Shown here: piece after piece, positions 25,935 through 53,440 of the stretch | Layout of the letters: each line of letters begins with the position of its first letter | Position numbering within the stretch: the stretch's first letter is position 1 | IMG/VR virus record: IMGVR_UViG_3300006620_000021 | Source: an uncultured virus (IMG/VR IMGVR_UViG_3300006620_000021) | Taxonomy: Duplodnaviria; Heunggongvirae; Uroviricota; Caudoviricetes | DNA length: 64,000 nt | Strand: one strand, 5' to 3' | Notes under the pieces: model-generated | What the model was told of the DNA's origin: nothing | Seen by the model: the letters and a program-made list of their open reading frames with translations, nothing else | Database searches by the model: none | Translations under genes and position numbers: made by a program

Positions 25935-26873
25935 ATGTTAAACTTACCCACTGTTTATTATACAAATGTAGACAGAAAAACTGACCGTAAAGAATATATG
26001 GAATCTCAGTTTAAATCTATGGGGATTCCGTATGAACGGATTAACATGCCATCTTTTCCTAGGCAAGTTCCGCAAGAGTTTTTAGATCGTTTAGATGGCA
26101 ACTATGGACCATCAACGTCACATTGGATAAATTTATACGGTTCCCAACTATTTGAATTTATGGATGAGTGGATGAGAACCACAGATGATCCATACTTATT
26201 GTTGATGGAAGATGATTATGATTTATCTCTACTTCCAAAATGTCAATTTGATTGGGATGAATTTATTGATAGACTTCCATATGACTGGGATTCTATTCAA
26301 CTGGGATTTGAAACTACTGATATAATTCCGTTCTACTTACATCCAACACAACCAGAATATTCTTTGGGTGCTTCACTTTTGCATAGATCATATGTTGATA
26401 AATTAGTTAATCTACATTATCGCAATGATAAATTTAAATTTGACTATACTATAGCGAATGCAATTTACTTGAATAGGGAATCTGGTATACATGATGATAA
26501 GGATTATTCAAATACATCTGGGGGTCCAGATTATTATATAAACCAAGCAGGTAAATCATATTCAATTCCGATAATTCCAATAAATCCATATCTTGCAGGT
26601 ATAAGTCATCAAGGACCATATGGTGAATTGCAATGGGAACCAAAAATTAGTTTTGTAAAATGTATAGAGGCATATCATGAATGGTGGAGAAATGACTCAG
26701 ATAAATTTTCTTTAGATGAGTTATTTACATTTGGAAAGGATAATGATATTCTGATGCAAAGGGATGTGTCAACGTGGTCAGATAAATATTTTTTTAAAGA
26801 AGCAAATAAAGTTGGAAACGCATACCATGAAAACCCTGTATCTGTTCCAACCACAACACGAGATTATAATTAA
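25935..26873 (+). CDS. Glycosyltransferase, family 25-like
   Basis: YYTNVDRKTDRKEYMESQF N-terminus, LLMEDD and WDSIQLG motifs. Confidence 0.75.
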   Translation: MLNLPTVYYTNVDRKTDRKEYMESQFKSMGIPYERINMPSFPRQVPQEFLDRLDGNYGPSTSHWINLYGSQLFEFMDEWMRTTDDPYLLLMEDDYDLSLLPKCQFDWDEFIDRLPYDWDSIQLGFETTDIIPFYLHPTQPEYSLGASLLHRSYVDKLVNLHYRNDKFKFDYTIANAIYLNRESGIHDDKDYSNTSGGPDYYINQAGKSYSIPIIPINPYLAGISHQGPYGELQWEPKISFVKCIEAYHEWWRNDSDKFSLDELFTFGKDNDILMQRDVSTWSDKYFFKEANKVGNAYHENPVSVPTTTRDYN

Positions 26874-28557
26874 AGATGTAAAGAATTATTGGTTACCCTA
26901 TGCCATAGGTTGTCTATGGAGTTATGTAAAGGATAACGTAGATGGATATGAATTGGGTGGACTTATCTTTAAAAGAGATAGTATTGAAGATGTCCTCAAA
27001 GAAATAAAAGATCCAGACGTTTGTGCATTTAGCACATATATTTGGAACGAACAATACAATTTGAAGTTAGCACAAGAAATTAAACGTAAGTATCCAAATT
27101 GTATTATAGAATTTGGTGGACCTCAGACAACTAAAAAATTAGTTGAATTGGATTATGTTGATTGTGTTATTCTTGGTGAGGGTGAGCGAGATTTTGTAGA
27201 TCTACTTGATAGAGTAAAGAATTCAAAACCAATACAATCAATATATGAAAGAGTTCAACTAGAAGAACTTCATTACACTAGTCCATACACTTCTGGAGTC
27301 TTCGATGATCTTGTGAGTAAATATCCAGATTATGTCTGGGCAACCTTAGTTGAAACTACTAGGGGATGTCCACATCATTGTACTTTTTGTGATTGGGGTA
27401 CATGGATGAAGAAGATAAAAAAATTTGATATAGATCAAGTAGAGAAAGATATTAACTGGATGTCTACAAATCGTGTTGGGTTTTTGATGGTTGCTGATGC
27501 TAATTTTGGAATCTTTGCTGAGCGTGATTTAAAAATTGCAAAGATGCTGAGAAAAGCGGCGGATCATCCAGATGCAATTATTGATGATCTAACAGTTCAA
27601 TACACAAAGAATGCAACTGATGTTGTCTTTGATATTAGTGAAGCACTTGGATCATATGACAGACGTGGTGTCAGTATGAGTGTTCAGTCCATGAATGGTC
27701 CTACACTACGTGCAATCAAAAGACAGAACAACACAAAAAATGTAGAATTTGTAAGGAAGGCAAGAGATAGGAATCTCAATGTATATACAGAACTGATCTT
27801 AGGATTGCCAGAAGAAACACTGGAGTCTTGGAAAACAGGCATTTGTACTTTGCTTGATCATGGGCAAGACAGTATTGATGTTTGGTTTTGTCAAGTATTT
27901 GGTAATACCGAATTAAATATGAATAGAGATAAGTATGGTATTACAGTAGTTAACGCAGAGGATTATGTATCTTTTACAAACAAAAAGGATACCGTAAAGG
28001 AGATTGTTGAAATTGTTAATAAGACAAACTCAATGTCAACAGAACAAATGATTGAAGCGTATTTGTATTCTTGGTTAATAATTCAATTTCATATCAACGG
28101 TTACTCTGAGGTGTTATCAAATTATCTTCATAGAACATTTGACATAAGTTATCGTAAATTCTATGATAACTTATACTTATATGTAAATAACGATAAAACT
28201 ATATTTGGTAATTACTTTAGACAATTAAAAGAAAGGATAACCGAATATCTGACTTCGGGTAAAATTATATCCAGCAAAGATACTGGTCATACTCTTGAAC
28301 TTAGTATGGGTACAGACTTTGACTTCTTTTGGTCAAATAAAGATTTGGCAATATACTTTGCAAAGGAGGGATGTGGAATGGAGATACCTGAAGACATATA
28401 TCAACTTCAGAGAAACTACATATATAACCCAGAGGATAACTATCCTAAAATTGTGGACGATTATTTGATAACTAATGCTAGACTAGAAGAAGAACGCAAT
28501 GATATCTGGACACTAAAAAGAAAAAATCTTTTGAAGAATAAAGTTGAATTTCTATGA
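26827..28557 (+). CDS. Cobalamin-binding radical SAM enzyme 1 (576 aa from MKTLY)
   Basis: N-terminal B12-binding-like domain (AFSTYIWN, FGGPQ, GEGE); ETTRGCPHHCTFCDW (CxxxCxxC), DANFG, ELILGLPEET. Confidence 0.9.
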   Translation: MKTLYLFQPQHEIIIKDVKNYWLPYAIGCLWSYVKDNVDGYELGGLIFKRDSIEDVLKEIKDPDVCAFSTYIWNEQYNLKLAQEIKRKYPNCIIEFGGPQTTKKLVELDYVDCVILGEGERDFVDLLDRVKNSKPIQSIYERVQLEELHYTSPYTSGVFDDLVSKYPDYVWATLVETTRGCPHHCTFCDWGTWMKKIKKFDIDQVEKDINWMSTNRVGFLMVADANFGIFAERDLKIAKMLRKAADHPDAIIDDLTVQYTKNATDVVFDISEALGSYDRRGVSMSVQSMNGPTLRAIKRQNNTKNVEFVRKARDRNLNVYTELILGLPEETLESWKTGICTLLDHGQDSIDVWFCQVFGNTELNMNRDKYGITVVNAEDYVSFTNKKDTVKEIVEIVNKTNSMSTEQMIEAYLYSWLIIQFHINGYSEVLSNYLHRTFDISYRKFYDNLYLYVNNDKTIFGNYFRQLKERITEYLTSGKIISSKDTGHTLELSMGTDFDFFWSNKDLAIYFAKEGCGMEIPEDIYQLQRNYIYNPEDNYPKIVDDYLITNARLEEERNDIWTLKRKNLLKNKVEFL

Positions 28558-30305
28558 GAAACCTATACATGTTCCAACCGCAGTATGCGGTAGAAGTTAG
28601 AAAGGAAGACACGTATTGGTTGCCGTACAGTGTCGGTTGTCTTTGGGCATATTGTTTACAATATGGTGACGTTGCTAGTGGATATCACTTAAAAGATTTT
28701 ATTTTTAAAAGAGAGAATCCCGAAGAACTTGTTGCACGATTGGAGGATCCAGTAGTGTGTGCATTTAGTACATATATTTGGAATGAGCAATACAATTTAC
28801 ACGTTGCTAAGTTAATAAAACAGAAATATCCAGAGTGCGTTATAGAATTTGGTGGACCTCAAGCAACCGAGAAACTTGTAGAGCATGACTTCATCGATTG
28901 TATTATTGTGTCTGAAGGTGAGCAATCATTTTTAGATCTTCTTCGGAAGATAATAATGCATGAACCTTATGAGAGAATCTATAAAAAAGAACGGATAGAA
29001 GATCTAGACTTTCAAAGTCCCTATCAACTGGGAGTGTTCAATAAAATAGTTGCAGATAATCCTGATGTTCTTTGGTCTATGACGATAGAGACCAATAGGG
29101 GATGTCCTCACAGATGCACTTATTGTGACTGGGGTGGAATGACATACCAAAAAGTTAAGCACTTTGAATTGGAAAGAATTCAACATGACATTAACTGGGC
29201 AGCAAGACATAATGTTGGATTCATATTCAATGCGGATGCAAACTTTGGAATGTTCAAAGAAAGAGATCTTGAGATCGCCAAACTATTTCGTGCTGCAGCA
29301 GATCGAGGTAAACTAGAAGCGATTAATGTTCAGTATTCAAAGAACTCAACAGAAGTTATTTTTGAGATTGCTCAAGTTCTCGGTGACATTAGTAGGGGTG
29401 TGACTCTCAGTGTTCAAAGTATGAATGAACCAACTCTTAAGTCTATTAAGAGAAAGAATATGAGCATTAATAAAATATCCGAACAAATTGAGAAGAGTAA
29501 AAAATATGGAGTTAAAACATATACCGAACTAATTTTAGGACTTCCAGAAGAGACCTTGGATTCTTGGAAAGATGGATTTGCACAAATCCTTGAATGTGGT
29601 CAACACGAATCTATTGACGTTTGGTTCTGTCAAATGTTTGGTGACACTGATTTGAATAGTGCATTATCTAGAGAAGTTCATGGTATCAAAACTATTAAAG
29701 CAGAAGACTACATGTCTTTCAGTAAAGATGATCATGACATTAAAGAAGTCATTGAGTTAATCTCAGAGACCAACACAATGACTAATGATGAACTTATTGA
29801 AGCATATCTTTATGGTTGGTTAGTGATTCAATTCCATATTGCAGGATACACTCAACTTGTCGCCAAACATTTAAATAGTTTGGGAATAGGATACAGATCT
29901 TTTTATGATAAATTATTTGCTTATATAAAAAATGATTCTGGTGTTATTGGAGATCACTATCGAGAGATTGAAAAATCAGTATCTCACTACATGAAGACTG
30001 GTAAGATCTTAGATCAAGGCAAGCACGGACACACTCTTCATGCCGCAAGTTTTGCCTTTATGTTCAGAAATAAGGAAAGTATTTTTGATATTTTATCTGA
30101 CTTAAATTTGGTTACTAATGATACTTTAAAACTCCAAAGAGCATTTATCTTTGATGAAGATACTGAGTATCCATATCAACTAGAGTGTGGAACTGATAAG
30201 TACACTGTGGATACTGAGTTCAAAGAATTTGACAGAAACGATCCACACACCGTGTTTATTTTGAGACGCAAAGGTCTACTGAAGAATCAACTATGTAAGG
30301 TTTAA
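28554..30305 (+). CDS. Cobalamin-binding radical SAM enzyme 2
   Basis: Same architecture with ETNRGCPHRCTYCDW; ATGA-coupled to enzyme 1. Confidence 0.9.
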   Translation: MRNLYMFQPQYAVEVRKEDTYWLPYSVGCLWAYCLQYGDVASGYHLKDFIFKRENPEELVARLEDPVVCAFSTYIWNEQYNLHVAKLIKQKYPECVIEFGGPQATEKLVEHDFIDCIIVSEGEQSFLDLLRKIIMHEPYERIYKKERIEDLDFQSPYQLGVFNKIVADNPDVLWSMTIETNRGCPHRCTYCDWGGMTYQKVKHFELERIQHDINWAARHNVGFIFNADANFGMFKERDLEIAKLFRAAADRGKLEAINVQYSKNSTEVIFEIAQVLGDISRGVTLSVQSMNEPTLKSIKRKNMSINKISEQIEKSKKYGVKTYTELILGLPEETLDSWKDGFAQILECGQHESIDVWFCQMFGDTDLNSALSREVHGIKTIKAEDYMSFSKDDHDIKEVIELISETNTMTNDELIEAYLYGWLVIQFHIAGYTQLVAKHLNSLGIGYRSFYDKLFAYIKNDSGVIGDHYREIEKSVSHYMKTGKILDQGKHGHTLHAASFAFMFRNKESIFDILSDLNLVTNDTLKLQRAFIFDEDTEYPYQLECGTDKYTVDTEFKEFDRNDPHTVFILRRKGLLKNQLCKV

Positions 30306-36394: not shown

Positions 36395-36732
36395 TATCCT
36401 CCACTCCAATCCCAGTTCCAAGGTAACATTGCCAGACCAAAATATGGCATAAGAATATAGTGATCCATTAGAATCAACACAGGTATACCAACACCCAATT
36501 CAATAGCAATCTTCTTTCTTGGAGGTAATGTTTCTAACCACCTTCTATATGGATTATCAGCAACTCTATTTAATTTTAGTTTATAGAATATTTGTTCTGC
36601 CCACCATTGTGGATCAATTACATTCTTAAACCAAATCAAAGGTGTCAATAACCATCTGACTTGCTTTCTATACCTTATTATTAATGCTATTAATAACGTT
36701 GGTATTAAAATTAATAATATAAGATCAATCAT
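36394..36732 (-). CDS. Hypothetical membrane protein, 112 aa
   Basis: Hydrophobic N- and C-terminal segments; ATGA overlap with gp17. Confidence 0.7.
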   Translation of the reverse strand: MIDLILLILIPTLLIALIIRYRKQVRWLLTPLIWFKNVIDPQWWAEQIFYKLKLNRVADNPYRRWLETLPPRKKIAIELGVGIPVLILMDHYILMPYFGLAMLPWNWDWSGG

Positions 36733-38381
36733 CTGTAGTCCCACATATAAGACATGTCACCATATTCATCAGTGTGCCAACGATCTCCATCGGCATCTAC
36801 AAATGAAGTTTGGTCTAAACCATCTTCAATAAAACCAAATGGTGCCATGTCTTGCTCTATTTGATTTTTCTGCTCTTCATATAATCTTTTACGAACATCC
36901 TGATCAGTTAATTCTTTAAAGTAATCTTGTTGAACTAACCAGGCATAGATAACCAGACACATTGCCAAGTCATCATTACATCCATCTTCCGCCTCAAATG
37001 AATTGTGCTTTTGAATGAATGTAGTAAGTTCTGCAATAACATCATAGTCCTTGAAGATCAACTTATCTTCTTCAATCAAAGTCTTAAGGTTCAAGCATCC
37101 AACCTTCTTAACAGTCTTAGACATCTTGACACCAAGTTGTGTCTTCTTACCAGAGAATCCTTGACCAACAATCTGTCCTGCTCTGCCTCTCATAGAACAC
37201 ATCAGAACATTCTCATATTCTAAGTCAAAGTTTAGAATTGCAGCAACCTGATCTCCAACATCATTGACTTCACATAATACATATGCTTTATTATAATTAT
37301 CTGCTACTTCTTTGATGATGCTGGGGAATAGCATCGGTTTGATTTCATTATTCCTATACTTGCATACTAATTGGTGTGGGAATGATGTGATATCAATAAC
37401 AGTAAATGCAGAATAGTCACCACCTACTCCTCTTGCAACGTCAACAGAGATTACATAATTATGATCTTGTATTACATCCGTAAATACATCTAATCCCTGA
37501 TGTGATATTGATGGTTGCTCATAAACCATCGTTCTTAGTTTGCTTGGAGCAATAAGAGTATCAACAGATCCTAGGAATTCGCACTCAAACTCAACCTTGA
37601 ACTGCTGTTCAGAAGTGTTTGCAATTGTTTGCTTTTTCCACTTATCATCTCTACCAGGAACATCACTCCAGTGAACCTCTGTAGGAATATATTCATTCTT
37701 CTCTCGCTCAGCATCATGCCAGAGTTTGTAAAAATGATTCATACCGTGAGGCGTACTCACGATAATAACTTTGGTGTTTTTACCAGATGAAATTGTAGGA
37801 TATACTGAACTGAAGAACTGATCAGCAATATGATTTGCAACGAACGCAAATTCGTCCAGGAAGATGATGTTGTAAGATCCACCACGAACTGCAGATGCAG
37901 ATGTAGATGCCGCGATAATCTTCGACCCGTTCTCTAGTTCAAGAGATGCTTTGTTCCAGGTTAAAACACCCTGCTGTAACCACTTGGGAAGATTTTCATA
38001 TGCAGTTTGCAATCTATCTAACAGGTCTTTAGCAGTAGACGCTTTGTTAGCAAGAATTGCAATATTTACGTTGTCGTTGAAGATTGCATAATGAAGCAAG
38101 TAAGATACGACAATGGTTGACTTACCAGACTGTCGTGGTAACTTACATATATTAAAACGGTTATGATGGAATCGATCCAACATAACCTTTTGGAATTCGT
38201 ATGGTTTAAAGTTCTGCAGACCATAATCCAGAGTAACAATCTGGATATAGTTCATTGCAAAGTACACTGGATCATCAATACACTTTGCAAACTCAAGAAC
38301 TTGTTCCTGAGTAAACTCTTGAGTTGTATTTGCTTTTTTTAGTAGTGGATTGCCAAGATAATGATCAACTTTCTGAGCCAT
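36729..38381 (-). CDS. gp17: Terminase large subunit (gp17)
   Basis: PRQSGKST, FLDEFAF, VSTPHG and DDLAM. Confidence 0.98.
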   Translation of the reverse strand: MAQKVDHYLGNPLLKKANTTQEFTQEQVLEFAKCIDDPVYFAMNYIQIVTLDYGLQNFKPYEFQKVMLDRFHHNRFNICKLPRQSGKSTIVVSYLLHYAIFNDNVNIAILANKASTAKDLLDRLQTAYENLPKWLQQGVLTWNKASLELENGSKIIAASTSASAVRGGSYNIIFLDEFAFVANHIADQFFSSVYPTISSGKNTKVIIVSTPHGMNHFYKLWHDAEREKNEYIPTEVHWSDVPGRDDKWKKQTIANTSEQQFKVEFECEFLGSVDTLIAPSKLRTMVYEQPSISHQGLDVFTDVIQDHNYVISVDVARGVGGDYSAFTVIDITSFPHQLVCKYRNNEIKPMLFPSIIKEVADNYNKAYVLCEVNDVGDQVAAILNFDLEYENVLMCSMRGRAGQIVGQGFSGKKTQLGVKMSKTVKKVGCLNLKTLIEEDKLIFKDYDVIAELTTFIQKHNSFEAEDGCNDDLAMCLVIYAWLVQQDYFKELTDQDVRKRLYEEQKNQIEQDMAPFGFIEDGLDQTSFVDADGDRWHTDEYGDMSYMWDYR

Positions 38382-38682: not shown

Positions 38683-39324
38683 TTATTTAGTCTGAGTAGA
38701 CTCGTTGACATCCTGACCACTACCACCAGATCCTTTATGTCTTTGACGATGAAGGTCGTTTAATCTTTTGCGATGCTTCTTCATCACTTTATCCGCCTGA
38801 GTAAAAGTTTCTTCCTCAGAGACCTTCTTTTTTTTCTTCTCGGTATCAACATTAATCGCTTTACCTTTGCGATTTGGATTACCATCCTCTCTGTTCTTGC
38901 GTCTAAATGCTGCGTCTTCCTCATCTTTATTGAGGTTACGCTTCATTTTGCTTGAACCNNNNNNNNNNNNNNNNNNNNNNNNNNNNNNNNNNNNNNNNNN
39001 NNNNNNNNNNCAACCAGGCTTGCCATCACTAGAACGACTCTTGCCAAACCAGTCACGCAAAGAAGAATCACCACTTTTGTTCCCCTCTTGGACCCACTCT
39101 TCAGCATAATTACCTTCTCTTTTTGCTTTGTCTCTAAGTGCTTTAAGCAACTTATTGTCACCAGGAGCATCTCCAGGTTTTTTCTTTAAGTTCTCTCTTC
39201 TCTTCTTTTCAAATTCATGTCGCTTTGCAGCAGACATTTTTTTCTTAGGCACCAATTTTCCAGTATGAGCACCAATTTCAGTCTCATCCTTTGCCTCTAT
39301 CATGAAGTCTTTAAATATTTTCAT
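38683..39324 (-). CDS. Basic modular protein with a capsid-targeting-like N-terminus (contains an assembly gap)
   Basis: Starts MKIFKDFMIE; Lys/Arg-rich blocks separated by acidic xxE sites. Confidence 0.7.
   Translation of the reverse strand: MKIFKDFMIEAKDETEIGAHTGKLVPKKKMSAAKRHEFEKKRRENLKKKPGDAPGDNKLLKALRDKAKREGNYAEEWVQEGNKSGDSSLRDWFGKSRSSDGKPGXXXXXXXXXXXXXXXXXXGSSKMKRNLNKDEEDAAFRRKNREDGNPNRKGKAINVDTEKKKKKVSEEETFTQADKVMKKHRKRLNDLHRQRHKGSGGSGQDVNESTQTK
38959..39010. other. Assembly gap (52 N)
   Basis: Run of N inside a CDS. Confidence 1.
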
Positions 39325-39965
39325 CAGTTACAATTCCAGCGACGTAGTGCTTTGTTGATTCTGGAGTCTGGATCTCTTGCAGTTTTTGCTGAGGTCAGTC
39401 TCTTCTTCATACCTTTCATCCTGGAGCAGAATGAAGATCTGCGTTTGGCAGATTTAGAACCTTTCTTTAACTTAGAAGGTTTTGTTGTAACAGCAGTCTT
39501 CAATTTAGAACCTGGGTTCTCTTTACGATAAGCATTGACTGCCTTCTGACTCAGACCATCGGTCTTGTCTTTACGATTGACAGACTGCCAATCTTCCTTA
39601 GCAAGGTCACCAAACTTCTCACGATGCTTTCTCAGAGGTTCTGAGTTCTTACGATACTCCTTAGCAGACTCTGGTTTGTCTCCTGGATTAGTATTTAACT
39701 TCCTCTCAGAAGACTTCTTTTTGAGATCAACTGCTTCATTCTTGGGACGGCAATCATTTACAAGTTTGCCACCCTTCAACTTCATACCCACTTTTTTGTG
39801 GGTCTTCCAACAAGCACGTTCTTCATCTGCCTGCAGTTTGGCAGCGATTGCCATCTGACGACGCTTCTCTTTGGACTTGCCTTTGAATTGAGGAGCATCA
39901 GAATCATAGAAGTCGTCAATGACTTCTCCCATGCCCGACTTCTTAATATTCAGTTTTTCATCTAC
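39324..39965 (-). CDS. Basic modular protein; likely the -1 frameshift extension of 39962..41815
   Basis: Frame is open from the slippery site (VDEKLNIKKSG-MGEVIDDFY...); ends RINKALRRWNCN. Confidence 0.75.
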   Translation of the reverse strand, partial: VDEKLNIKKSGMGEVIDDFYDSDAPQFKGKSKEKRRQMAIAAKLQADEERACWKTHKKVGMKLKGGKLVNDCRPKNEAVDLKKKSSERKLNTNPGDKPESAKEYRKNSEPLRKHREKFGDLAKEDWQSVNRKDKTDGLSQKAVNAYRKENPGSKLKTAVTTKPSKLKKGSKSAKRRSSFCSRMKGMKKRLTSAKTARDPDSRINKALRRWNCN

Positions 39966-41815
39966 TTTCCCAGGCGGTCTTCCTCCTCGGATGCCATCTT
40001 ATATCCTGCCTTAGCAGCTTTGCCTGCAGTCTTTACACCAGAAGAGAATCCCTTACCAAATTCTTTAGCACCTTTGCCAACCTTAGAAGCAATTTTCTTG
40101 GTGGTTTCAATATCACCCTTGGCTCTTGCCATTGCTTTTTTGTGGCGATCCATTCCCTTAAGAACTTGCCTTGCAATGCCGTCTAATACAGGTCTCTTCT
40201 TAGGTTGTTGCTTCTTAGCAGTATCTGCTGCTGCCTTAGTTTTTTCTGCAGATGGTTTTTTCTTTGCAACTTCTTTAGCATCAATCTCTGCCTTTACTTC
40301 AGCATAAGACTTAGCACCTTTACGTGCTTTTTTTGCTGCTCTTGCTTCGGTAAGATAGGTATCTGCAGAGAGACCTTCTACAAAAGATACAAACTGTTCA
40401 AGACCAAGTTCTTCGATGAAGATATCTACACCATCCTCATTAACACCTTCATTAAAGAGATATTCTGCAGCGATGTCTGCTAATACTTCTTCTTTTTTGG
40501 TTTTGTTACCCCAGTTCTTAGCACCCTTCTTACGGCACTTAACTAATGCACCAGATGCATATGCACTTGGCCAAACACTATAACGGGATTTTACTTTGTG
40601 ATAGCAAGCATCTTTCTCGCCTGCTGCCTCATCTACTTCTTCCTCAGAAAGACTAGGGCAACACTTCTGACCATGAACAGCACAGTCTTTACCCTTTGGA
40701 GTTCCTGCACATTCTGCTTCTTCCTTTTGAACTTTTAGAAGAGGAGAATCAATAGGAGCATAACTGCTTGGTAATTCACTCTTATGGAATGAAGTTACTT
40801 TTCCTCCTGGATATACTTTTTCAATCTCTCTTTGAACATCCTTTCTAGTAGGCATTTTTGCCTGAGGGAAGAACATTCTAATCATATAAGACTTACCTCT
40901 CCAAATGACCACAACACCTACGATGTGACCAAATTCTGCAGGAAGTCTTACTCCTTCAGCAACTGGTTTTGATTTTGACTTTTTCTTATAAGTCTCTTTG
41001 GCGAAAGAATCAGTCTTACCACCATAAGTTGCTCTGACTGGTGCAGTGCCCTTTACATAAGTTTCAGAATCAGAATACTTGCCTTCATCCATTTCTTCTA
41101 CTTCTTCTTTTTGAGTTTTCTTTCTGGCTGCGATTCTGTCCTGAACATCCTTCATGGAGTCAGTGCTGTGAATCTTCATACCTCTTTCCTTGTCTCTCTT
41201 CTGGTTAGCAGCTGCTGCTTTCTCCAGAGCATCATCAGTCAATCTATTCTCTTCATTCGCTTTGACACAATTTGGATATCTCTTACCAAACATGGTCTTC
41301 ATTCCTTTCTTTTTGTATCCCGCCCAACACTTCTCAACAATATCTTCTGGTTTGATAAGATCAACTACTTCCATGAACTTATTACCGAAAGCATCTTCAA
41401 TAGAGAGAGATTCTCCCACTCCACCACCATTACCACCATTACCACCGTTGCCACCTTCACCACCTTCTACTGGTTTGTCGATACCAACTTCTTCTGGTTC
41501 ACGACCACCACCACCAAAACGTGCAGTCATCTTCAGACCTGCAGGAAGTTTCTTACACTTCTTATCAGTGTAGCAGTAGTACATACCCTTACCACACTTC
41601 TCTTCACCAAGAATGACATCAACAAGTTTTAATCCAGGAATAATTTCTTCCTGTTGACCCTGCCTAAACTTAGGGACATCAACTTTAGCAGCAGGACGCA
41701 ACTTTCTATCGGCAACCTTCCTTTCATTAGGGTTGTCCGACTTCTTCATATTATTAATTTTTGCTTGCTTGTTTGCAGCTTTATGGGTCTTAGGATTTAT
41801 ATCGAAACTTGCCAT
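39962..41815 (-). CDS. Large basic modular protein (candidate capsid-internal polyprotein)
   Basis: 617 aa of short Lys/Cys-rich modules separated by acidic linkers; lies between gp16 and gp17 after a late promoter. Confidence 0.8.
   Translation of the reverse strand: MASFDINPKTHKAANKQAKINNMKKSDNPNERKVADRKLRPAAKVDVPKFRQGQQEEIIPGLKLVDVILGEEKCGKGMYYCYTDKKCKKLPAGLKMTARFGGGGREPEEVGIDKPVEGGEGGNGGNGGNGGGVGESLSIEDAFGNKFMEVVDLIKPEDIVEKCWAGYKKKGMKTMFGKRYPNCVKANEENRLTDDALEKAAAANQKRDKERGMKIHSTDSMKDVQDRIAARKKTQKEEVEEMDEGKYSDSETYVKGTAPVRATYGGKTDSFAKETYKKKSKSKPVAEGVRLPAEFGHIVGVVVIWRGKSYMIRMFFPQAKMPTRKDVQREIEKVYPGGKVTSFHKSELPSSYAPIDSPLLKVQKEEAECAGTPKGKDCAVHGQKCCPSLSEEEVDEAAGEKDACYHKVKSRYSVWPSAYASGALVKCRKKGAKNWGNKTKKEEVLADIAAEYLFNEGVNEDGVDIFIEELGLEQFVSFVEGLSADTYLTEARAAKKARKGAKSYAEVKAEIDAKEVAKKKPSAEKTKAAADTAKKQQPKKRPVLDGIARQVLKGMDRHKKAMARAKGDIETTKKIASKVGKGAKEFGKGFSSGVKTAGKAAKAGYKMASEEEDRLGK
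39965..39988 (-). promoter_or_regulatory. Programmed -1 ribosomal frameshift signal
   Basis: GAGGAGG-10 nt-G GGA AAG-TAG. Confidence 0.75.
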
Positions 41816-41835: not shown

Positions 41836-42258
41836 CTATTTATCTTCATTAATATTTTTAGCTTGCTGCTTGAGCATCTTTGATAACTCTGCTGTAGATC
41901 CGAAGAACATTGCATTGTTGGTCACATTTGTAGGACCTTTTTCATCAGCATCCAAATCCTTCACCTTCTTCTGAAGATCGAGTAATTTGTCCGTTGCATC
42001 TGCAACATTTTTAATTAACTGACCAACAACTTCAAATTGTCTTGCTTGTCCACTATCTTGGGCAAGTTCTAATGCAGTGTCTAATGCTTCTTGACCCTTC
42101 TCAATAATAGAATAAAGGTTTCCTCTAGTATATTCATAATCTTTAGTTACATCTTCAGACTCTGAAGGTTTTGTCAACTCCTTTTTTTCTTTCTCTGGTT
42201 TTACAATCTCCGCTTCCACGTCAAATGTATCGTTAAGATCCTTAAATTTATCAGTCAT
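41836..42258 (-). CDS. gp16: Terminase small subunit (gp16)
   Basis: DYEYTRGNLY..IEKG, FEVVGQLIK and NNAMFFGSTAEL. Confidence 0.9.
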   Translation of the reverse strand: MTDKFKDLNDTFDVEAEIVKPEKEKKELTKPSESEDVTKDYEYTRGNLYSIIEKGQEALDTALELAQDSGQARQFEVVGQLIKNVADATDKLLDLQKKVKDLDADEKGPTNVTNNAMFFGSTAELSKMLKQQAKNINEDK

Positions 42259-42260
42259 AA

Positions 42261-43235
42261 TCAACCACTAAATCCAAAGTTATCGCCAGATTCGATTAAA
42301 TCATTGTCTGCTTCAGTAATCAAATACATTGGTGTTCCACCAACGTGTTCAGTAGCAGTTGTTCTATACATGCCTCTGTTCACTGTCAGATCATTATTAG
42401 TTTTTTCCTTAATGTAAAGGGTTTCTTCATCAAGGGTAATATATGATCTAACTGGTACATTTGATGCATCATCAACAGTAATAACACCTGTACCTGCCAA
42501 AATATTGTCAGAAATATTAGTGACAATAGTTCCGCTGTATGCTTTGGTTGCGATTGGTTTTTGATATACCAAATCTCTTCTTGCATCTGGACTTGGGTCT
42601 CCACCAGCAACACCAATAGAAACTCTGGTAATAATATCTCCTTTTGTTTCTGGAACTGGTCCAAAGAGATGAGTCTTTGCACTAAACTTTAACGTATAAA
42701 GTAAAACCCTTCTTGACGTATAGTCGCCGTCATAATTATCTTCAAATGATACTGATTCTAAAGTAATTGGTATATCTCTTTTCTCACCAATAGCCTCTAC
42801 CAAATCGATTGTAAGATTATAATTTGGTTGAAAATATGGTAAAATTTGTTCTACAATTTGAAGAGCATCATCATTTAGAAGTGTCATTATAGACAATTCA
42901 AAGTCCATATTATATGGAACGGGATGATACATTTTGCGTATCTCTTTTGAGTCCGTAGACAACGAGGTTGCAAAGTGCTGTGTCGATGCCAACTTTCTAC
43001 TAGAGTCATAAGAGACTCCAGTAAATTCAAAAGATATTCTTGGCAAACTAATTTGAACAGGTTTGTTCAAATCTGGTTGTTGCTCAAGACGTGCCAAGAA
43101 CTTTTGAGTAGGACCATATGCCAAAGGAATCTTTATAATCTCACCGCCGTCTCTAGTAATTTCAATATTATTGAATAAAGTTCCAAACGCAATCACCGTT
43201 TTTCTAAAAATTTGGTGATAAAAATGATTAAACAT
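42261..43235 (-). CDS. gp15: Tail sheath stabilizer / terminator (gp15)
   Basis: FGTLFNNI, PLAYGP.QKF, LPRISFE and QILPYFQP. Confidence 0.93.
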   Translation of the reverse strand: MFNHFYHQIFRKTVIAFGTLFNNIEITRDGGEIIKIPLAYGPTQKFLARLEQQPDLNKPVQISLPRISFEFTGVSYDSSRKLASTQHFATSLSTDSKEIRKMYHPVPYNMDFELSIMTLLNDDALQIVEQILPYFQPNYNLTIDLVEAIGEKRDIPITLESVSFEDNYDGDYTSRRVLLYTLKFSAKTHLFGPVPETKGDIITRVSIGVAGGDPSPDARRDLVYQKPIATKAYSGTIVTNISDNILAGTGVITVDDASNVPVRSYITLDEETLYIKEKTNNDLTVNRGMYRTTATEHVGGTPMYLITEADNDLIESGDNFGFSG

Positions 43236-45712: not shown

Positions 45713-48700
45713 TTACGCTAATCCAATAACTCTCAAATCTTTAATCCTTGGAGGATATGCCTGATTTGTGGATGTACCCACAAGTTTAATACTGAAGTAT
45801 TTAAACTCTGGCAGATTATCAATACTGAATTCATAATCACGGTAAACTAGATTCTGACTTTCGGATGCTAATCTATCAGTTTTTGGAACTCTCTTGTCAG
45901 GGAGACCATTACTCTTAGCAAAATCAATAATCTTACCATTAGTATCTAGATTAGTATATCCAGGGAAAGGATAATATAGTGGTTCAATTTCTGGAGTGTT
46001 ACTAATTGAGTAGAACGCTCTAATATCATTAAAGGTGTTCACATATCCTGCAAGCAGAATTTTTATAGAAGTTGCTGGATTTTCCAACTCAACTTGCTTG
46101 TTTGCATATATGAACGCAGTAGGATCATCATCAATATTTGCAGTTCTCCTGTCAGTGGTATAATCCGTGATTGGAGCATTGACTCTATTTGATATGAGAA
46201 CCATACCAACTCTGTCAAGGTCAATTACAGGTGAGATGTTATTGTTCGCGGTGGATAATGTAAATGTAAGTTCCATTGACTTATCCGCAGGAAGTCCACT
46301 TTGTTGCTGAAGTTCGTTAACTCTAGAAGCAATCATTCTTGCTTCAGGCATGTAACTATCTTCACTCAAGTTAATAGGTGTGGATTCCGTCTGTTCAAAC
46401 GATAACTCATTACCATCGATACTAGTTGCACTAATACCTTTCAGTTCTGCCTTAATGGAAGTTCCTGGGAGTGCCATTGTTTGAACAATTGGTCTAACTG
46501 CTTCAAACTGAATGTTTTGTGTAGCAGTTACGCGATTACCACCTTCAGAAGCATTTGAATTGATGAAGAGTTTGGGGAACCCTACTCCAGTGCTTCTATC
46601 AACACCATTTATTGCGGTGTTAATCTTAAGATGATAGTTATCAAATCCAATAGAACGTGCGACTAAGGAATCAGAAAGTGTGTGATCTGTGTTTATTCTT
46701 CTGAGAGAAATTCCACTGTTCTCATACTTGCTGATATTTGATGTATCGGGATATGTAAATGATCCTGTTCCATCAATACCTCTAGTAATTCCTGTTAACT
46801 GACCATTAGAAATGCCAGTGTAAGAAATAATCTCATCGTCAATTATTACATAACCTGGGTTGGTTGATCCAACAGAGACGCTCTCAAAGGTTTCAAATCC
46901 AGCAGTGCTTGCAATACTAATTGCACCAGATTCAGAGTTTGTATACTCTGCAGTCAATGTAGTTGGTCTTCTATCACTTTGAGCATTTTGAATTCTAACA
47001 ATGTTCCTCGTATCATGCATACCATGATTCTTATGTTGAACATTGATGTGAAGTCCATCTCTATCGAGTGCTTCAAGTTCAAAGTCTGCTACTTGAATGG
47101 GATTGCCAGCAAGAGAGAACATAGTAGTAATTCCTGTAGAAGGACTTACATATTGAAGTGGTTTTGAAGCGTTCAATTGGAACTCACCTTGAACATTTTC
47201 AATGAACAGTTCATTGATTCCATTGACATTGCCAACAGATAACTCAAGATTTCTACCAAGAGATTCACTACCAACAGATTCTACAAGGAATACATCACCA
47301 ACTTGATAACCAGAACCACCATTGTTGATGGTTGCTGCAATAGCAACACCATTAGTTGCTCCTTGAGCACCAATAGTAATGTCTGCAGTGGCGTTTCTTC
47401 CTCTGCCAGAGAACGTTCTAAGTGCTACGTTATCATATGTAAGTTGAGTGCCATTAGATGGCGTGTAACCAATACCTGCATTTACGATGGTCAATGTACC
47501 AGTAGCAGATCCACCAGCACCAACATAATCACCACTAGCATTAGTATTCTCTTGAACGATGGTATTACCTTCAACAAAGTTGGCGGTGTTTATAACATCA
47601 TTTGCAGTTACTACGAGTGATCTTGAATTAAACTCAATAGGATCTTGAACAAGAGTTGCAATTTGGTTATTACCAATTCCTAACTCTGGGTTGAAGAACG
47701 ATACCGTAGCAGTCTCGTCAAAGTTAGCAGTATAAAGACTGAACTTCATATCTTCATACTGACTAGGAGTCCAAGTAGAACCATTCTGAGACTTAAACAG
47801 AGATCCGAGGTGTGGTTGTGAAGACACAATCACTTGTCTAGATTCTGGTTGCAGAAGAGTGCTTACATCGACTTCACCCATTCTAGAGATCCAAGCGGTG
47901 TACTCGTGAGAGTTTGACAGCATAACAATTGCATGTTCTGCTTCACCGTTAAGATAAACTGGGGATGGGAATGTAACTTTGGTTGGGATACTCGCATCAT
48001 GAGTTTCAATTACATCAGCAGGATCAAGGATTACTTCACCGAAGGGGTAGATCTGTTCAGATGGAACACCTGCGTTCATTGGACGCAGTTGAACAATCAG
48101 AGGTAGAACTGGGTCTTTTGTTCTGATGTAAACATCAATCTCAGTGATGAATGAACCTGGATCATCTGCGAGTGAGAAGGACTGTGCAAGGGGATCCTTT
48201 CCTCTACGACGACGAGGTGGTCTGGGTGGACGACGAGGTGGTCTGGGCGGTCTTCTCCGTGGCCTTGGCGGTGGAGGTGCTGGTCTCCGTCTTCTCCTTC
48301 TGACGGGTCTTCTACGCACTCTACGTACACGTCTGACAATCGTAGGACGACGAATAACTACGCGGCGTCTTCCACCTCCACGTCTTGGTGGATTAGGGGG
48401 TGCAGAAGGAGTTGGCGCTGGTGGCGGTGGTGGTGGCGGTGGTGGCGGGGGAGGAACTGGTAGTGGAGTAGTACTAGTAGATGTAGAGTTAGTTGAAGTT
48501 CTAGTGACACGTACATCAGTAGCAGGTTGAGTCTCAGAAGCAGCAACCCTTTCAAATCTTGGACTTCTAGTAGACCTAATGGTCTCTTGCATGTTATTAA
48601 CAGTACCAGAAGCAAAGTAAGACTCTTCGCCAGAGGTATCAGTAAGACCAGCAATCTGACTATTTGTAGAATTACTAGTTAATCTAAAGATTTTAGTACC

Positions 48701-51700
48701 AACTTCAAACTGAGGATTAGTTGATACGTTTGGATTTGGAATAAAGAATGTTCCAAGAACTGTACCAGAAGTATCTGTTATAAGTTTGACTGCAGTAACT
48801 TCTGCCTCACCAGAAGCACCACGCAGTCTCATTCCTGAAGTAATATAACCCGTATAAAGAGACTGATTGCTTTCTGCAAGTGATCTAGTATCTACATTAA
48901 GAATTACAGATGAACTAGAATAGTTCTCTGGAATAGTGTAGTTTTCATCATATGGACTATTACCAAAAGTATCTGTTGGTGCTGTAATAGGACCATACTT
49001 ATGATTAGACTGCGCTACTCTGAATGAAATTGATGGTAAAGTTCCACCAGGAGCAACACCAGTCATGGTGCCAGTAACTCTTTCGCCTACGCTGAAAGAT
49101 CCACTGATCATTCTAATTTCAATGAGTTTTGGTATTACATAACGATTTACATCTTCACCATCAAAGAATCCATAAAGTCTTGTTCTTGGTTTGAATCTCT
49201 TACCAGTGAACTCAACATTACGTGATCTCATAAATGGAACCACGTCAGTACTTACAACTCTATCACCTTCATTACGAGTTTGTACTTGTTCAGATACTCT
49301 AAGTTGTGAACCAGTTCTAGTACGAGTACCAGTTCTAGTTGTTGTAGTAGTAACTGTAGTTCTTGTGTTGTTTGTTTGTACTAATGTATTTCCTCTATTC
49401 TGAACAGAAGAACCTGTAACAACAGTCTCTGAAGCAGAACTGGAACTACTGCCAGTCCATGTTGTTGCCCAAGCACCCCATCTAGCAGGACCAAGACCAG
49501 TTTGAGCATCATAACCAGCAAATTCTAATTGAAGTCTCGTTTGAGTGTAATTATCTACTTCAATTCTTTGTGGTTGTAATCTAACCTGATCAATCCATAT
49601 ATCAGATGCTGGGAACAATTCAATGTTACCAGTATAAGATACGACAAGATATGGAACTACATTCTCAACTCTGGTTGCAAATGGTTGTTGAATCTCAAGT
49701 TCTGAGAAGTAATTAATGGTCAATAATTGACCAGTTCTTCTAAAGTTTGATCCAATTAAGTCGGTAACTAAAGCAGGATCCGATACAACAGATGTTGTTC
49801 CAATTCCAAGTAAAGATCTAGAACCAACCAACAGGTCAACTTCAGTTGTGAAGTGTGAGGGTCTTAATTCGAGATTTACAGGGTCAATAGCATTAGTGAC
49901 TCTACCACCTTGTAGTTGATTTGTTCTAGTTGTAAAGTTATCAACAAAGATACCAGATTTGAATCTTGTCAGTCCAGTATCATCTGTGATATTCAAAGCA
50001 TCAGTCTTTGCTTCAAGTAAAGACAATGCGGTGTAGTATTCAAGGTTTTCAATCCTATCTTCCAGGACTGCAATATCCTTCATTCTGTATCTCTTATGAG
50101 ATTTCAGTGATATGGATAAATTCTCAGCATTACAAACATAGGGAGGAAGTCTAACTGTTCCAACTTCCAATGCATTCTCCAATGGAATTGGAGGTAGTGG
50201 AGATTCTGCAGGAACACCTTGCAGCAATTGGAATCCACCATCTGGTTTAAAGTAAATTCTATCAATTCGCGGCAGATAATACGAATAGTCTACCAGAATT
50301 GATTCATCAGATGCTAAAATATTCTTAGCGGAGTTTGTTGAATCTGAGAAGTTTCTTGAACTAAATTCAAATGGAGATGCTGTAGTTGAATCTGGATCAA
50401 ATACCGTAACTCTAGGTCTGATATCAATAATATCAGTTACTCTAGTTTTATCCTTAACAATAGGCAAGTCACAATAATCAAACTGATTATAAGACTCTAA
50501 AGTAGTGATATCACCTTCGGTTGAGGAAGTATATTCTGCAGATTGGAATACAATTCTTAAACGATTTCTTGGATTTTTTGATCCTGGTTTCCTAATCAGT
50601 CTAGAGTAATCAAGAATGGTGTCTCTTTGACCAGAATCAAGAGTATATCTGTTGAGAATATTATTATCACCTACAGTAAAATCGTTGATAGTAGCAGTGA
50701 TTCCTGTAGCAGAAGATAATACAGATTCTCCATTCTCAAATTTAATATCGTTCAAGTAAACAATATTTAAAACAGAACTTGTTTGTCTACCATAGACAAT
50801 AGCAATAGCGCCAGATTTTTGACCCGTAATCTCTTCACCAATATTATAGTCATCTGTTTTACCTGTTGGACCATTCAGGTTGAATAATGAAATTGTGGGG
50901 AGCTCTGGATTACCTGTATCACTAGATTCATATACTGCATAGACCTTAACTACATCTGGTTCTAAGAGACAGATCTCTCTATCTTGTACTCTAAGACCAT
51001 AACCAAAAGATCCATGTGTTAAACCATCATTAAGGGTGGTAGATCCAATACCAGAAGATACCAATCTAGACTTATTAACAATAATCGAATTTGTTGTCTT
51101 TGATTTCTTTACCTTGGTTGTTACGTTTGTTTTTCTAAGAGTAGTAATTAGTCTTGCTGGACCAGACTGCTGCGCCAATCCAAATATTCTCAGTTCCTTG
51201 TTACCATTAGTAAATCTTAATTTATCTTCTGTTAACTCTTCAAAAGCACCACTATTATTGACTAAAACATATCTTTCTTCATCATAAGGTAAGAATGTCT
51301 CATTCTCTCCTGCTTGAATTGTATTAGTTGCATTTGCAGTGAGAGTTACAGTAAATTCCTTTTTAATTGTAAGTCTAGATGACTCTAAATTTACAGAGGC
51401 AATAAATTCCTTAGGAAGTGGTGTGTAAAGAGTGTTATCTGATGATGCTTGAAACTTTGTATTGACTACAGTAAAATCGGTTGGACTAATAGACGATGTT
51501 GGAAGACCACCATCGTTAACATTAGATACCGTTGTAATACCTACAATAACAAAGTTATTTTCGTCAGTAACCTCAGTAATTTTTGCATAGGTTCTAACTT
51601 TAGTGCTACCAAGAAGACTATTTGTAAATGCTACAATATCCCCTGGTTTGACCTGGTTAGTAACTTCTGTAATTGAAGTCACCGTAGAGATTCCTGGCGC

Positions 51701-53440
51701 AGTTCCTGACTTGGGTGATATAGTTACACTAGGAAGAGCGAATCTTGAAGATAACTTTGTATCGCCATTAAAGGTAATACCTGTGCCAACCTCACAATAA
51801 ACTGATTTAGCATCACCAACACCAAAAGTGGTAACAGCAGTAGATACTCTACCGTCCGCTATACCATTAAAGGATAATTTCTCACCCTTAAGGAATGTGC
51901 CTCTAGTGCCATATACGGTAGCAATACCAGTAGTGGTATTAAATCTTAAGTGTCCAGTAGCACCACTAGATCTACCCTCAATGTAAGTTGGTACATTTAA
52001 GTTTGCCGCGTTATTTAATTGAATCTCAGTGTATGGTTGAATATCATAAAGAGCAGTATCCCATTCATTCAGTTCAGATGCTACACTAGAATATGATCCA
52101 GACTCTAATGCATAGTCATAAACTCTAGCAACACCAATTTCTCTACCTGCTGGATCTGTACCTACAGATCCAATTCTATCACTTCTAAGACTAATTATCG
52201 ATGATGTACTAAACCCAATTCTTGGAGCACCAGTGACTCTATTAAGAGTTAAGGTTGGACCAGTAAAATAGTTAACTGCCTGACCTTCTAACTTTTTAGT
52301 TGTTCTGGTTTTGGGGAAATCTAGATAATGTATAGTTTTGGAATCACATTCAAATCCACGAATAAATGCTTTACCAGGAGAGATTTTGTATGTTCCTAAA
52401 TCATCACTAGGTACGTTTTGATTATATGTTAATTGGTCTTTTGTGAATACACCATTATTACCTCTCATATCATTGAGAGATTCTCTTGCATGAATAGCAA
52501 ATGGTTTTACATAAAAGTCGCCAGATTGATCATATGTTCTTCTTGCCAGTTCTTCTGCTAACTCATTATATTGAGTCTTATCAGTAATATGCTGAATATC
52601 ACCATCTCTGATGATCATTAACTCAGCAAAATTTTCATTCTTTGTTGCTTCTAAATCTAACTTATCTAAAGATGCTGAGATCTTTAATCTATCTGCACCA
52701 GGTGCAGCATAGTTGTTAAATCCTTTTGCATTATCTGTAAGGGATGCATCTTGTCCAGATGTTATAATGTCTTCATAGATGGTTAATCCAATCCTGAATG
52801 AGGGTGAATTATTGTGTGCATCTAAGATAAGAGTTTGTGCTGGAACTTTTACGAAAGTTCCTCTTAAGAAATATACGCCTTCGCTTAAAAATACTGCAGA
52901 TCCAATAGAAGTTGCATTTGTTGGAGCAGTTTTTGTAATTGCCTGTCCTGCTTGAAGAGTTATTCCCGTGTCAGCAGTAACTGTGTTTTCTAAAAGTAGT
53001 ACTTCATCGTCATCAAATACATCTTTACCAGAGACACCACCACCCAAGTACTGGATAAAAAATGTTAAGTAATCTCTTTCAGACTCGTCTCTCTCACCAT
53101 AAAATACAATTTTTGCCTTTACATTAGAATTTTGACCTACAATAGTCTCATTAATCAGGTCTTCAGCATTTGTATCAACATCTAAACCGAGATATGTATG
53201 CTCTACTTCAACACTGGTCAACTCGTTATTATAGTTGATTTGACCAGGAATTACCATGGAACCCTCTTTAAAGAGGTGAGTTCCAAGTTGCTCTACTTGA
53301 TCCTGTAAGATAGACTGTAAGGACGTTAATTCCCTAGCTTGAATAGGTAATCCTGGTTTGAATAATACTTTATAGTAATTATCTTTCGGATCAAAGTCGT
53401 CAAAATAAGGAGATACGTTTAGGTTAGTTTCTTGTGGCAT
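45713..53440 (-). CDS. Large virion structural protein (VrlC/DUF4815-like), 2575 aa
   Basis: PYFDDF...LFKPG..QARELT.LQS, APGADRLKI, RFKSGIFVDNF and DPLAQSF; lies after gp8. Confidence 0.85.
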   Translation of the reverse strand: MPQETNLNVSPYFDDFDPKDNYYKVLFKPGLPIQARELTSLQSILQDQVEQLGTHLFKEGSMVIPGQINYNNELTSVEVEHTYLGLDVDTNAEDLINETIVGQNSNVKAKIVFYGERDESERDYLTFFIQYLGGGVSGKDVFDDDEVLLLENTVTADTGITLQAGQAITKTAPTNATSIGSAVFLSEGVYFLRGTFVKVPAQTLILDAHNNSPSFRIGLTIYEDIITSGQDASLTDNAKGFNNYAAPGADRLKISASLDKLDLEATKNENFAELMIIRDGDIQHITDKTQYNELAEELARRTYDQSGDFYVKPFAIHARESLNDMRGNNGVFTKDQLTYNQNVPSDDLGTYKISPGKAFIRGFECDSKTIHYLDFPKTRTTKKLEGQAVNYFTGPTLTLNRVTGAPRIGFSTSSIISLRSDRIGSVGTDPAGREIGVARVYDYALESGSYSSVASELNEWDTALYDIQPYTEIQLNNAANLNVPTYIEGRSSGATGHLRFNTTTGIATVYGTRGTFLKGEKLSFNGIADGRVSTAVTTFGVGDAKSVYCEVGTGITFNGDTKLSSRFALPSVTISPKSGTAPGISTVTSITEVTNQVKPGDIVAFTNSLLGSTKVRTYAKITEVTDENNFVIVGITTVSNVNDGGLPTSSISPTDFTVVNTKFQASSDNTLYTPLPKEFIASVNLESSRLTIKKEFTVTLTANATNTIQAGENETFLPYDEERYVLVNNSGAFEELTEDKLRFTNGNKELRIFGLAQQSGPARLITTLRKTNVTTKVKKSKTTNSIIVNKSRLVSSGIGSTTLNDGLTHGSFGYGLRVQDREICLLEPDVVKVYAVYESSDTGNPELPTISLFNLNGPTGKTDDYNIGEEITGQKSGAIAIVYGRQTSSVLNIVYLNDIKFENGESVLSSATGITATINDFTVGDNNILNRYTLDSGQRDTILDYSRLIRKPGSKNPRNRLRIVFQSAEYTSSTEGDITTLESYNQFDYCDLPIVKDKTRVTDIIDIRPRVTVFDPDSTTASPFEFSSRNFSDSTNSAKNILASDESILVDYSYYLPRIDRIYFKPDGGFQLLQGVPAESPLPPIPLENALEVGTVRLPPYVCNAENLSISLKSHKRYRMKDIAVLEDRIENLEYYTALSLLEAKTDALNITDDTGLTRFKSGIFVDNFTTRTNQLQGGRVTNAIDPVNLELRPSHFTTEVDLLVGSRSLLGIGTTSVVSDPALVTDLIGSNFRRTGQLLTINYFSELEIQQPFATRVENVVPYLVVSYTGNIELFPASDIWIDQVRLQPQRIEVDNYTQTRLQLEFAGYDAQTGLGPARWGAWATTWTGSSSSSASETVVTGSSVQNRGNTLVQTNNTRTTVTTTTTRTGTRTRTGSQLRVSEQVQTRNEGDRVVSTDVVPFMRSRNVEFTGKRFKPRTRLYGFFDGEDVNRYVIPKLIEIRMISGSFSVGERVTGTMTGVAPGGTLPSISFRVAQSNHKYGPITAPTDTFGNSPYDENYTIPENYSSSSVILNVDTRSLAESNQSLYTGYITSGMRLRGASGEAEVTAVKLITDTSGTVLGTFFIPNPNVSTNPQFEVGTKIFRLTSNSTNSQIAGLTDTSGEESYFASGTVNNMQETIRSTRSPRFERVAASETQPATDVRVTRTSTNSTSTSTTPLPVPPPPPPPPPPPPAPTPSAPPNPPRRGGGRRRVVIRRPTIVRRVRRVRRRPVRRRRRRPAPPPPRPRRRPPRPPRRPPRPPRRRRGKDPLAQSFSLADDPGSFITEIDVYIRTKDPVLPLIVQLRPMNAGVPSEQIYPFGEVILDPADVIETHDASIPTKVTFPSPVYLNGEAEHAIVMLSNSHEYTAWISRMGEVDVSTLLQPESRQVIVSSQPHLGSLFKSQNGSTWTPSQYEDMKFSLYTANFDETATVSFFNPELGIGNNQIATLVQDPIEFNSRSLVVTANDVINTANFVEGNTIVQENTNASGDYVGAGGSATGTLTIVNAGIGYTPSNGTQLTYDNVALRTFSGRGRNATADITIGAQGATNGVAIAATINNGGSGYQVGDVFLVESVGSESLGRNLELSVGNVNGINELFIENVQGEFQLNASKPLQYVSPSTGITTMFSLAGNPIQVADFELEALDRDGLHINVQHKNHGMHDTRNIVRIQNAQSDRRPTTLTAEYTNSESGAISIASTAGFETFESVSVGSTNPGYVIIDDEIISYTGISNGQLTGITRGIDGTGSFTYPDTSNISKYENSGISLRRINTDHTLSDSLVARSIGFDNYHLKINTAINGVDRSTGVGFPKLFINSNASEGGNRVTATQNIQFEAVRPIVQTMALPGTSIKAELKGISATSIDGNELSFEQTESTPINLSEDSYMPEARMIASRVNELQQQSGLPADKSMELTFTLSTANNNISPVIDLDRVGMVLISNRVNAPITDYTTDRRTANIDDDPTAFIYANKQVELENPATSIKILLAGYVNTFNDIRAFYSISNTPEIEPLYYPFPGYTNLDTNGKIIDFAKSNGLPDKRVPKTDRLASESQNLVYRDYEFSIDNLPEFKYFSIKLVGTSTNQAYPPRIKDLRVIGLA
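48197..48470 (-). repeat. Low-complexity poly-Pro and Arg/Pro-rich coding tract
   Basis: P12 run, then RRVVIRRPTIVRRVRRVRRRPVRRRRRRPAPPPPRPRRRPPRPPRRPPRPPRRRR; near-tandem 21-nt repeat. Confidence 0.9.

Follow-up and report, generated by a model that had tools for sequence, protein, structure and literature searches.

In bacteriophage T7, ribosomes that shift by -1 close to the 3' end of gene 10A/10B, which encodes a virion protein, yield a minor form of it that is extended at the C-terminus. The lambda G/GT shift likewise occurs near the end of the upstream open reading frame (ORF) and gives a C-terminally extended minor product, at the slippery heptamer G_GGA_AAG. The same heptamer closes a 617-amino acid (aa) ORF in an uncultured member of the Caudoviricetes (IMG/VR record IMGVR_UViG_3300006620_000021), of which a stretch of 64,000 nucleotides (nt), hereafter the window, was analyzed. 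An original prediction made from these letters alone held that a programmed -1 frameshift at this heptamer fuses the 617-aa ORF to a following 202-aa ORF in a protein of 830 aa. Comparison with relatives lends support to a conserved -1 ribosomal frameshift at precisely the site proposed, and we consider it likely that a functional, conserved frameshift of this kind yields both a short and a long protein.

The locus shares features with several described systems and departs from each. Lambda G/GT lies between the tail tube and tape measure genes in a small (~100-150 aa) chaperone ORF, whereas the site in the window is flanked by terminase genes and ends a 617-aa ORF without a match to any chaperone family, in keeping with the expectation that it would fall outside the tail-chaperone genes. 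Lambda G and GT are absent from virions, while one relative here bears the annotation "virion protein"; moreover, the present site has a stop directly after the heptamer and a Shine-Dalgarno (SD)-like element 5' of it. As described by Atkins et al. 2016 (PMC5009743), the lambda-type G/GT frameshift is conserved across mosaic phage genomes. A second likeness is to dnaX (tau/gamma), where an SD-like element also lies ~10 nt 5' of a heptamer of lysine codons and two isoforms have a common N-terminus. Escherichia coli dnaX is, however, another gene, with the heptamer A_AAA_AAG and a 3' stem-loop, while junctions of the type found in the window (type A, defined below) have no conserved stem-loop. 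The same review describes both arrangements among dnaX homologues: the long form is read in the zero frame where the -1 frame stops at once, or it arises by the shift where a zero-frame stop immediately follows the site (Atkins et al. 2016, PMC5009743). Compared to T7 10A/10B, the extension here measures 213 aa and includes a conserved domain, the two protein families are unrelated, and the link to the virion runs only through an annotated relative. Literature searches on cyanophage or cyanomyovirus frameshifting returned no paper that is relevant by title or abstract, and a search on the domain DUF6321 returned none at all. The mechanism itself is already known. New are the gene family and phage group in which it occurs here, together with the portable junction and the paired alleles discussed below.

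Architecture of the junction

The 3' end of the 617-aa ORF reads CTG GGA AAG TAG, with the X_XXY_YYZ heptamer in the zero frame directly before the stop. GAGGAGG lies upstream at a spacing of exactly 10 nt, and both elements are placed as originally described. From 39971 the -1 frame reads GGG AAA GTA GAT GAA AAA CTG and stays open for 215 codons, through the ATG of the 202-aa ORF to a stop at 39326..39324, for a predicted fusion length of 617 + 213 = 830 aa. The features of the junction are as follows.

39962..41815, minus strand: zero-frame ORF P0001, 617 aa (interval including the TAG stop), mosaic lysine-rich N-terminal part of a DUF6321/T4-GC119-type protein; matches to phrog_727 and phrog_3477, and cassettes in common with the annotated virion protein of S-SCSM1
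39982..39988, minus strand: SD-like GAGGAGG, also encoding Glu-Glu
39965..39971, minus strand: slippery heptamer G_GGA_AAG, zero frame
39962..39964, minus strand: zero-frame TAG directly 3' of the heptamer, invariant in all frameshift-type relatives
39324..39971, minus strand: -1 frame open stretch P0002 (Gly, Lys, 213 further residues, and stop), C-terminal part of the predicted 830-aa product
39933..39965, minus strand: eleven -1 frame codons (VDEKLNIKKSG) between slip site and ATG, homologous to an internal segment of single-ORF relatives
39930..39932, minus strand: ATG of the mechanically called 202-aa ORF, in the -1 frame
39908..39943, minus strand: predicted stem AGAAGUCG/CGACUUCU, specific to the window, with the ATG in its loop, beginning 21 nt 3' of the heptamer
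39336..39572, minus strand: DUF6321 (PF19846), P0002 residues 134-212; Pfam score 53.4 bits (gathering cut-off 28.5), E 4.2e-14

The heptamer by itself is unremarkable, as GGGAAAG occurs five times in the window compared to 6.6 expected. Its above-chance features are its frame, its placement at an ORF junction, and its conservation in relatives.

In the proposed mechanism, ribosomes translating the 617-codon zero frame would reach G_GGA_AAG with UAG as the next codon. Most would terminate there and release a 617-aa protein without DUF6321. A fraction would slip back by one base (GGA to GGG, AAG to AAA) and translate a further 213 codons, of which GUA (Val) is the first, giving an 830-aa protein that bears DUF6321. 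We infer that slippage occurs in reality and that the relative amounts of the two isoforms are important to the virion.

Conservation and coding across the junction

Searches of IMG/VR and of JGI metagenome contigs recovered two kinds of junction, type A, which continues VDEKLNIKK... as in the window, and type B, which leads straight into DUF6321 (V[DE]EDWQKANRKD...). Among contexts of 112 nt around the junction, 19 are distinct (14 type A, window included, and 5 type B), and GGGAAAGTAG is invariant in them; conservation of GGGAAAG followed by a stop, proposed at the outset as a check, was found in 19/19. There are 14 distinct 30-nt upstream contexts and two downstream modules, with upstream modules of four to five types (AGYKMA[ST]EEEDRLGK, KAVHKLATEEEDRLGK, QEKFLQ..KKEEDRLGK, SDWRSDLEDDRLGK, and KKEQFEGEDRLGK). 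When the search was anchored downstream of the site, the site was present in 9/9 type A contigs and in 10 of the 36 type B contigs, the other 26 being in-frame or stand-alone. None of these 9 type A and 36 type B matches has a broken frame without the heptamer. The domain motif was located in 79 out of 80 DUF6321 loci. Sixteen of the 79 require a -1 shift (type A, 7 loci; type B, 8 loci; the second site described below, 1 locus).

A search of JGI metagenome contigs that was degenerate at the Leu, Gly, and Lys codons returned CTG GGA AAG in 15/15 cases, 14 in the frameshift form and 1 in-frame with ATT. A degenerate search for in-frame ...DRLGKSE gave 10 matches, with CGC CTG GGA AAG in 5/5 family members and other codons in the 5 unrelated sequences. 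In the variant L229 the Leu is replaced by Arg (CGG GGA AAG), yet G_GGA_AAG is retained. In this phage CGC accounts for 5% of Arg codons and CTG for 11% of Leu codons, and neither varies at the site. At 39962-39981 of the window, and in relatives, the invariance takes in the 5 nt immediately 5' of the heptamer (CGCCT), which use these rare codons and may have a role in slippage.

Homologues that are encoded in one frame allow the predicted trans-frame protein to be compared residue by residue. The alignment of the single Sf-CH8 ORF with the -1 frame begins at residue 3 of the latter, which lies 11 codons 5' of the ATG (VQEKLDMKKADMGDV to VDEKLNIKKSGMGEV), and its counterpart of the eleven pre-ATG codons is VQEKLDMKKAD. 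In-frame homologues P0010, P0011, and P0020 read ...EEEDRLGK-I-DEKLNIKKADMGEV, and P0008 reads ...LEDDRLGK-I-DEKLNIKK (also DEKLNIKKADMGEV). The predicted slip product, ...EEEDRLGK-V-DEKLNIKKSGMGEV (DEKLNIKK), is the same save for the I/V exchange, with no residue gained or lost. P0012, also in-frame, is likewise collinear (...WRSRLGK-I-DEKLNIKKAGMGEV). The pre-ATG segment is DRLGK-I-DEKLNIKKAD in P0008, P0010, P0011, and P0020, and the Met at ATG 39932 corresponds to a conserved internal residue (ADMGEV) of the fused relatives. In-frame fusions, which the original prediction had suggested looking for in relatives, thus exist and are collinear with the predicted trans-frame protein.

The type B loci extend this comparison to the DUF6321 frame itself. 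There the open stretch of this frame spans only 99-100 codons, with the earliest ATG, GTG, or TTG at codon 68-69; the domain therefore cannot come from ordinary initiation. Pairwise differences among the five distinct type B sequences lie at third positions of the DUF6321 frame. Between L097 and L138, for example, 14 codons differ synonymously and 3 non-synonymously in the DUF6321 frame, compared to 3/16 in the zero frame and 2/16 in the +1 frame. Type A substitutions are likewise concentrated at third positions of the -1 frame. Judged by these substitution patterns, the downstream frame is under purifying selection without decay, and the alignments show the -1 frame to be coding right from the heptamer onward.

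Candidate stimulators and alternative explanations

GAGGAGG is predicted to pair with the anti-SD motif at -11.8 kcal/mol with a spacer of 9-10 nt, which places it among the best ~1% of 21-nt windows on the same strand. Among the 14 distinct upstream contexts, the SD-like element is strong (-9.8 kcal/mol or better) in 9, and a GAGG or GGGG core is present in 14/14. G_GGA_AAG is highly shift-prone in E. coli, as stated by Atkins et al. 2016 (PMC5009743). We infer that GAGGAGG and the adjacent stop stimulate slippage.

The ATG had also been placed within a potential stem. Such a stem is indeed predicted, with AGAAGTCG (39943..39936) paired to CGACTTCT (39915..39908) and the ATG in the loop, and folding of 60 nt gives -13.7 kcal/mol (z -2.9); it is, however, not conserved in type A. 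Other type A relatives have a 5' arm of GGCAGAC type, and L090 folds no better than shuffled sequences (z -0.67). With a 5' arm that differs in these relatives and a start 21 nt past the heptamer, the window stem was rejected as a conserved stimulator. Type B junctions have a hairpin of 7 base pairs (bp) on the 3' side of the heptamer at a distance of 8 nt; its predicted energy is -10.4 kcal/mol (z -4.0), and it is partly dictated by conserved D-W...N residues.

Several observations weigh against frameshifting at this site. The SD-like element is weak in 5/14 upstream contexts (-6.0 kcal/mol, a value with a background of 13%), and it is also explained, on the reading of its codons, by the Glu residues that it encodes. 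No conserved 3' stem-loop or pseudoknot was found at the usual 5-9 nt in type A. A comparison of the junction DNA with cultured phages (a collection of 50,697 records) identified no isolate that carries the site: the window junction matches only in its downstream part, in Sf-CH5 and Sf-CH8 (both in-frame), and the type B junction matches 8 records, again in downstream parts only. Because type A sequences differ very little from one another downstream of the site, part of their invariance may reflect a young cassette spread by recombination. An ATG lies 11 codons past the site in the -1 ORF, and a separate 202-aa product is possible from it. Finally, stand-alone DUF6321 ORFs occur, both as short ORFs among the type B matches and in the isolate S-RS29 (L331, 1430-3303), where DUF6321 is encoded apart, by a 120-aa ORF that has an ATG of its own and overlaps an upstream 504-aa ORF through ATGA. 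Judged from this isolate, the family also exists as a genuinely split pair, and split expression is viable in it.

The last of these points, together with the ATG and the lack of a conserved 3' stimulator in type A, would favor two separate genes. The 617-aa ORF would stop at TAG, translation of the 202-aa ORF would begin independently, through coupling or re-initiation, 30 nt further on at ATG 39932, and the heptamer would be incidental. We regard this as unlikely. The 11 pre-ATG codons are conserved as protein and collinear with in-frame homologues, the Met is internal and conserved in fused relatives, and neither the heptamer nor the stop varies at synonymous sites, although the codons used are rare. 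Furthermore, type B has the same junction without a start codon for 68 codons, and its domain is nonetheless under purifying selection.

It is quite improbable that the site instead records a real 1-nt deletion (e.g., AAG GTA to AAG TA) at a slippery spot, adventitious, on the way to gene decay, and tolerated through occasional slippage. Frameshift and in-frame forms do differ by a 1-nt indel plus a substitution at the junction, cultured isolates all have single in-frame ORFs, and translational "correction" of indels is mentioned by Atkins et al. 2016 (PMC5009743). The form nevertheless recurs in 19 distinct contexts, on at least 19 IMG/VR contigs and further metagenome contigs. In type A the frameshift form stands to the in-frame form as 14:1 in metagenome contigs and 9:0 in IMG/VR, and the downstream frame is under purifying selection, with no sign of decay.

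Transcriptional slippage, in which RNA polymerase would produce mRNA with one extra base, is very improbable. Although the site contains G3 and A3 runs, the longest run here is 3 and the signal is of X_XXY_YYZ form in the correct frame; bacterial transcriptional slippage involves runs of about 9 A or T, according to Atkins et al. 2016 (PMC5009743). A sequencing or assembly indel in the window, for which a one-base loss beside short G and A runs would be the typical error type, is extremely improbable because the same junction is present in many independent assemblies, and Logan contigs of 4 runs from 4 studies (depths 9-17; some runs possibly the source sample, and contigs drop rare variants) have 0 differing letters and 0 gaps over 39700-40300 (601 nt).

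A mosaic gene family between the terminase genes

By its profile matches and gene order, the frameshift gene is a member of a mosaic family of lysine-rich proteins with DUF6321 at their end (T4-GC119 type) and is located between the gp16 and gp17 genes. The phrog_727 matches of the two ORFs adjoin, with P0001 (7.7e-32) covering profile positions 203-311 and P0002 (1.2e-42) covering 311-430. Cultured phages carry the homologue at this genomic position as a single ORF, of 402 aa in Sf-CH8 and 401 aa in S-SSM5 (note "T4-LIKE GC: 119"). Further single-ORF homologues are found in S-P4 (note "structural protein T4 GC0119"), P-TIM68 (427 aa), and S-SCSM2R (815 aa), and the synteny beside the terminase genes agrees with Sf-CH8, S-SSM5, and S-P4. 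The single-ORF relative S-SCSM1 ORF29 (517 aa) has cassettes of both P0001 and P0002 and is annotated in its record as "virion protein". In the S-SCSM1 study, 45 virion proteins were detected by mass spectrometry (PMC9602691), and ORF29 may be among them. Sullivan et al. 2010 (PMC3037559) describe T4-GC119 as a hypothetical protein in a mobile cassette of the gp16-gp17 hot spot, and the word "frameshift" is absent from their paper. In some relatives (L039, L041, and L078) the DUF6321 motif is internal with more modules after it, and the domain is not always the C-terminal end.

Structural comparisons were also made. The AF2 model of DUF6321, built from 7 sequences, has five helices and a mean pLDDT of 72.9. 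Foldseek found no match to it in the PDB, and its best VIA-align Z of 3.6 is within noise, with no convincing structural relative. A PDB sequence search with P0001 and P0002 gave nothing below E 0.18, and an Atlas search returned DUF6321 clusters only.

In-frame relatives retain the heptamer, followed by TCT GA. or ATT GA., and their -1 frame stops at the third codon from GGG (GKV-stop, GKD-stop) in 6/6 downstream contexts. This is a hint that both isoforms may also come from in-frame alleles, with the roles of the two frames exchanged as among dnaX homologues. It is only a hint because the immediate -1 TGA follows from two codon types (TCT, ATT) before a Glu or Asp codon and is statistically unconvincing alone.

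A second -1 cassette occurs in the same family outside the window, where ...NCVKK is written AAC TGC GTA AAA AAG TC(C/A) AAG AAG AAG AAG TAA (IMG/VR loci L054 near 1891, L281-L302, and L303-L329). A_AAA_AAG is in frame, the zero-frame stop comes five codons later, and the -1 ORF extends for 280 to more than 505 codons. A search with the heptamer pattern found 22 contigs, and in a downstream-anchored control the heptamer and broken frame were present together in 27/27 contigs. A hairpin of 9-12 bp begins 5-8 nt past this heptamer (z -2.9 to -5.1). The isolates S-PRM1 and S-RS29 are in-frame at the second site, without the heptamer.

The same nucleotides as at the window junction were also seen in an unrelated small gene pair, in which a ~100-aa ORF ends ...VVDRLGK with TGA or TAA right after GGGAAAG and is followed by a ~90-aa -1 ORF (GKVT.EE..EGS.ELSM). 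This pair is present at nine loci (L086, L092, L105, L133, L150, L166, L170, L185, and L194), and its size and layout resemble a tail-chaperone-type frameshift. L105, the sole locus scanned, has no PHROG match.

We tentatively suggest, as a possibility short of an even chance, that a ~25-nt unit of SD-like element, CGCCU, G_GGA_AAG, and UAG is a portable recoding cassette. Set by recombination at module boundaries, it would fix the share of copies that carry DUF6321; mirror alleles would be reversed, and frameshifting, with the second cassette, would be a general form of module dosing. Frameshift alleles coexist with in-frame ones that encode almost the same protein, which, together with a second slippery cassette, offers a natural experiment on how isoform ratios of a virion-associated protein are set and on the movement of recoding signals between genes. 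The locus also offers a natural case of -1 recoding for cyanobacterial ribosomes outside tail-chaperone genes, with an internal SD-like element and an adjacent stop as apparent stimulators rather than 3' structure. For annotation, gene callers divide the gene into two hypothetical proteins and miss the real products.

The window can be identified as part of a T4-like cyanomyovirus because nearly every match of its DNA and proteins is to a Synechococcus or Prochlorococcus myovirus. T4-like cyanophages are among the most abundant ocean viruses. The G+C content is 38%, and the genes around the frameshift locus are on the minus strand. Neighboring T4-type genes identified with Pfam and PHROG encode neck, sheath-stabilizer, terminase small, terminase large, tail sheath, and baseplate gp8 proteins. 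The nearest neighbors of the frameshift gene are as follows.

41836..42264, minus strand: terminase small subunit (gp16); Pfam PF11053, phrog_445
38683..39324, minus strand: 213-aa ORF of the same mosaic family (phrog_727, profile 67-221), lacking DUF6321 and overlapping at its start with the -1 ORF stop
36729..38381, minus strand: terminase large subunit (gp17); Pfam Terminase_6N/6C, phrog_2

There are 0 tRNA genes within the window. Elsewhere in it, two very long minus-strand ORFs at 45713-53440 (2575 aa) and 55063-63921 (2952 aa) flank the gp8-like baseplate gene. Between 21630 and 23721, ORFs overlap on opposite strands, with a plus-strand ORF at 22081-23616 (511 aa) set against minus-strand ORFs at 22318-23721 (467 aa) and 21630-22718. 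A plus-strand island at 25935-30305 contains three ORFs (312, 597, and 583 aa) amid an otherwise minus-strand region.

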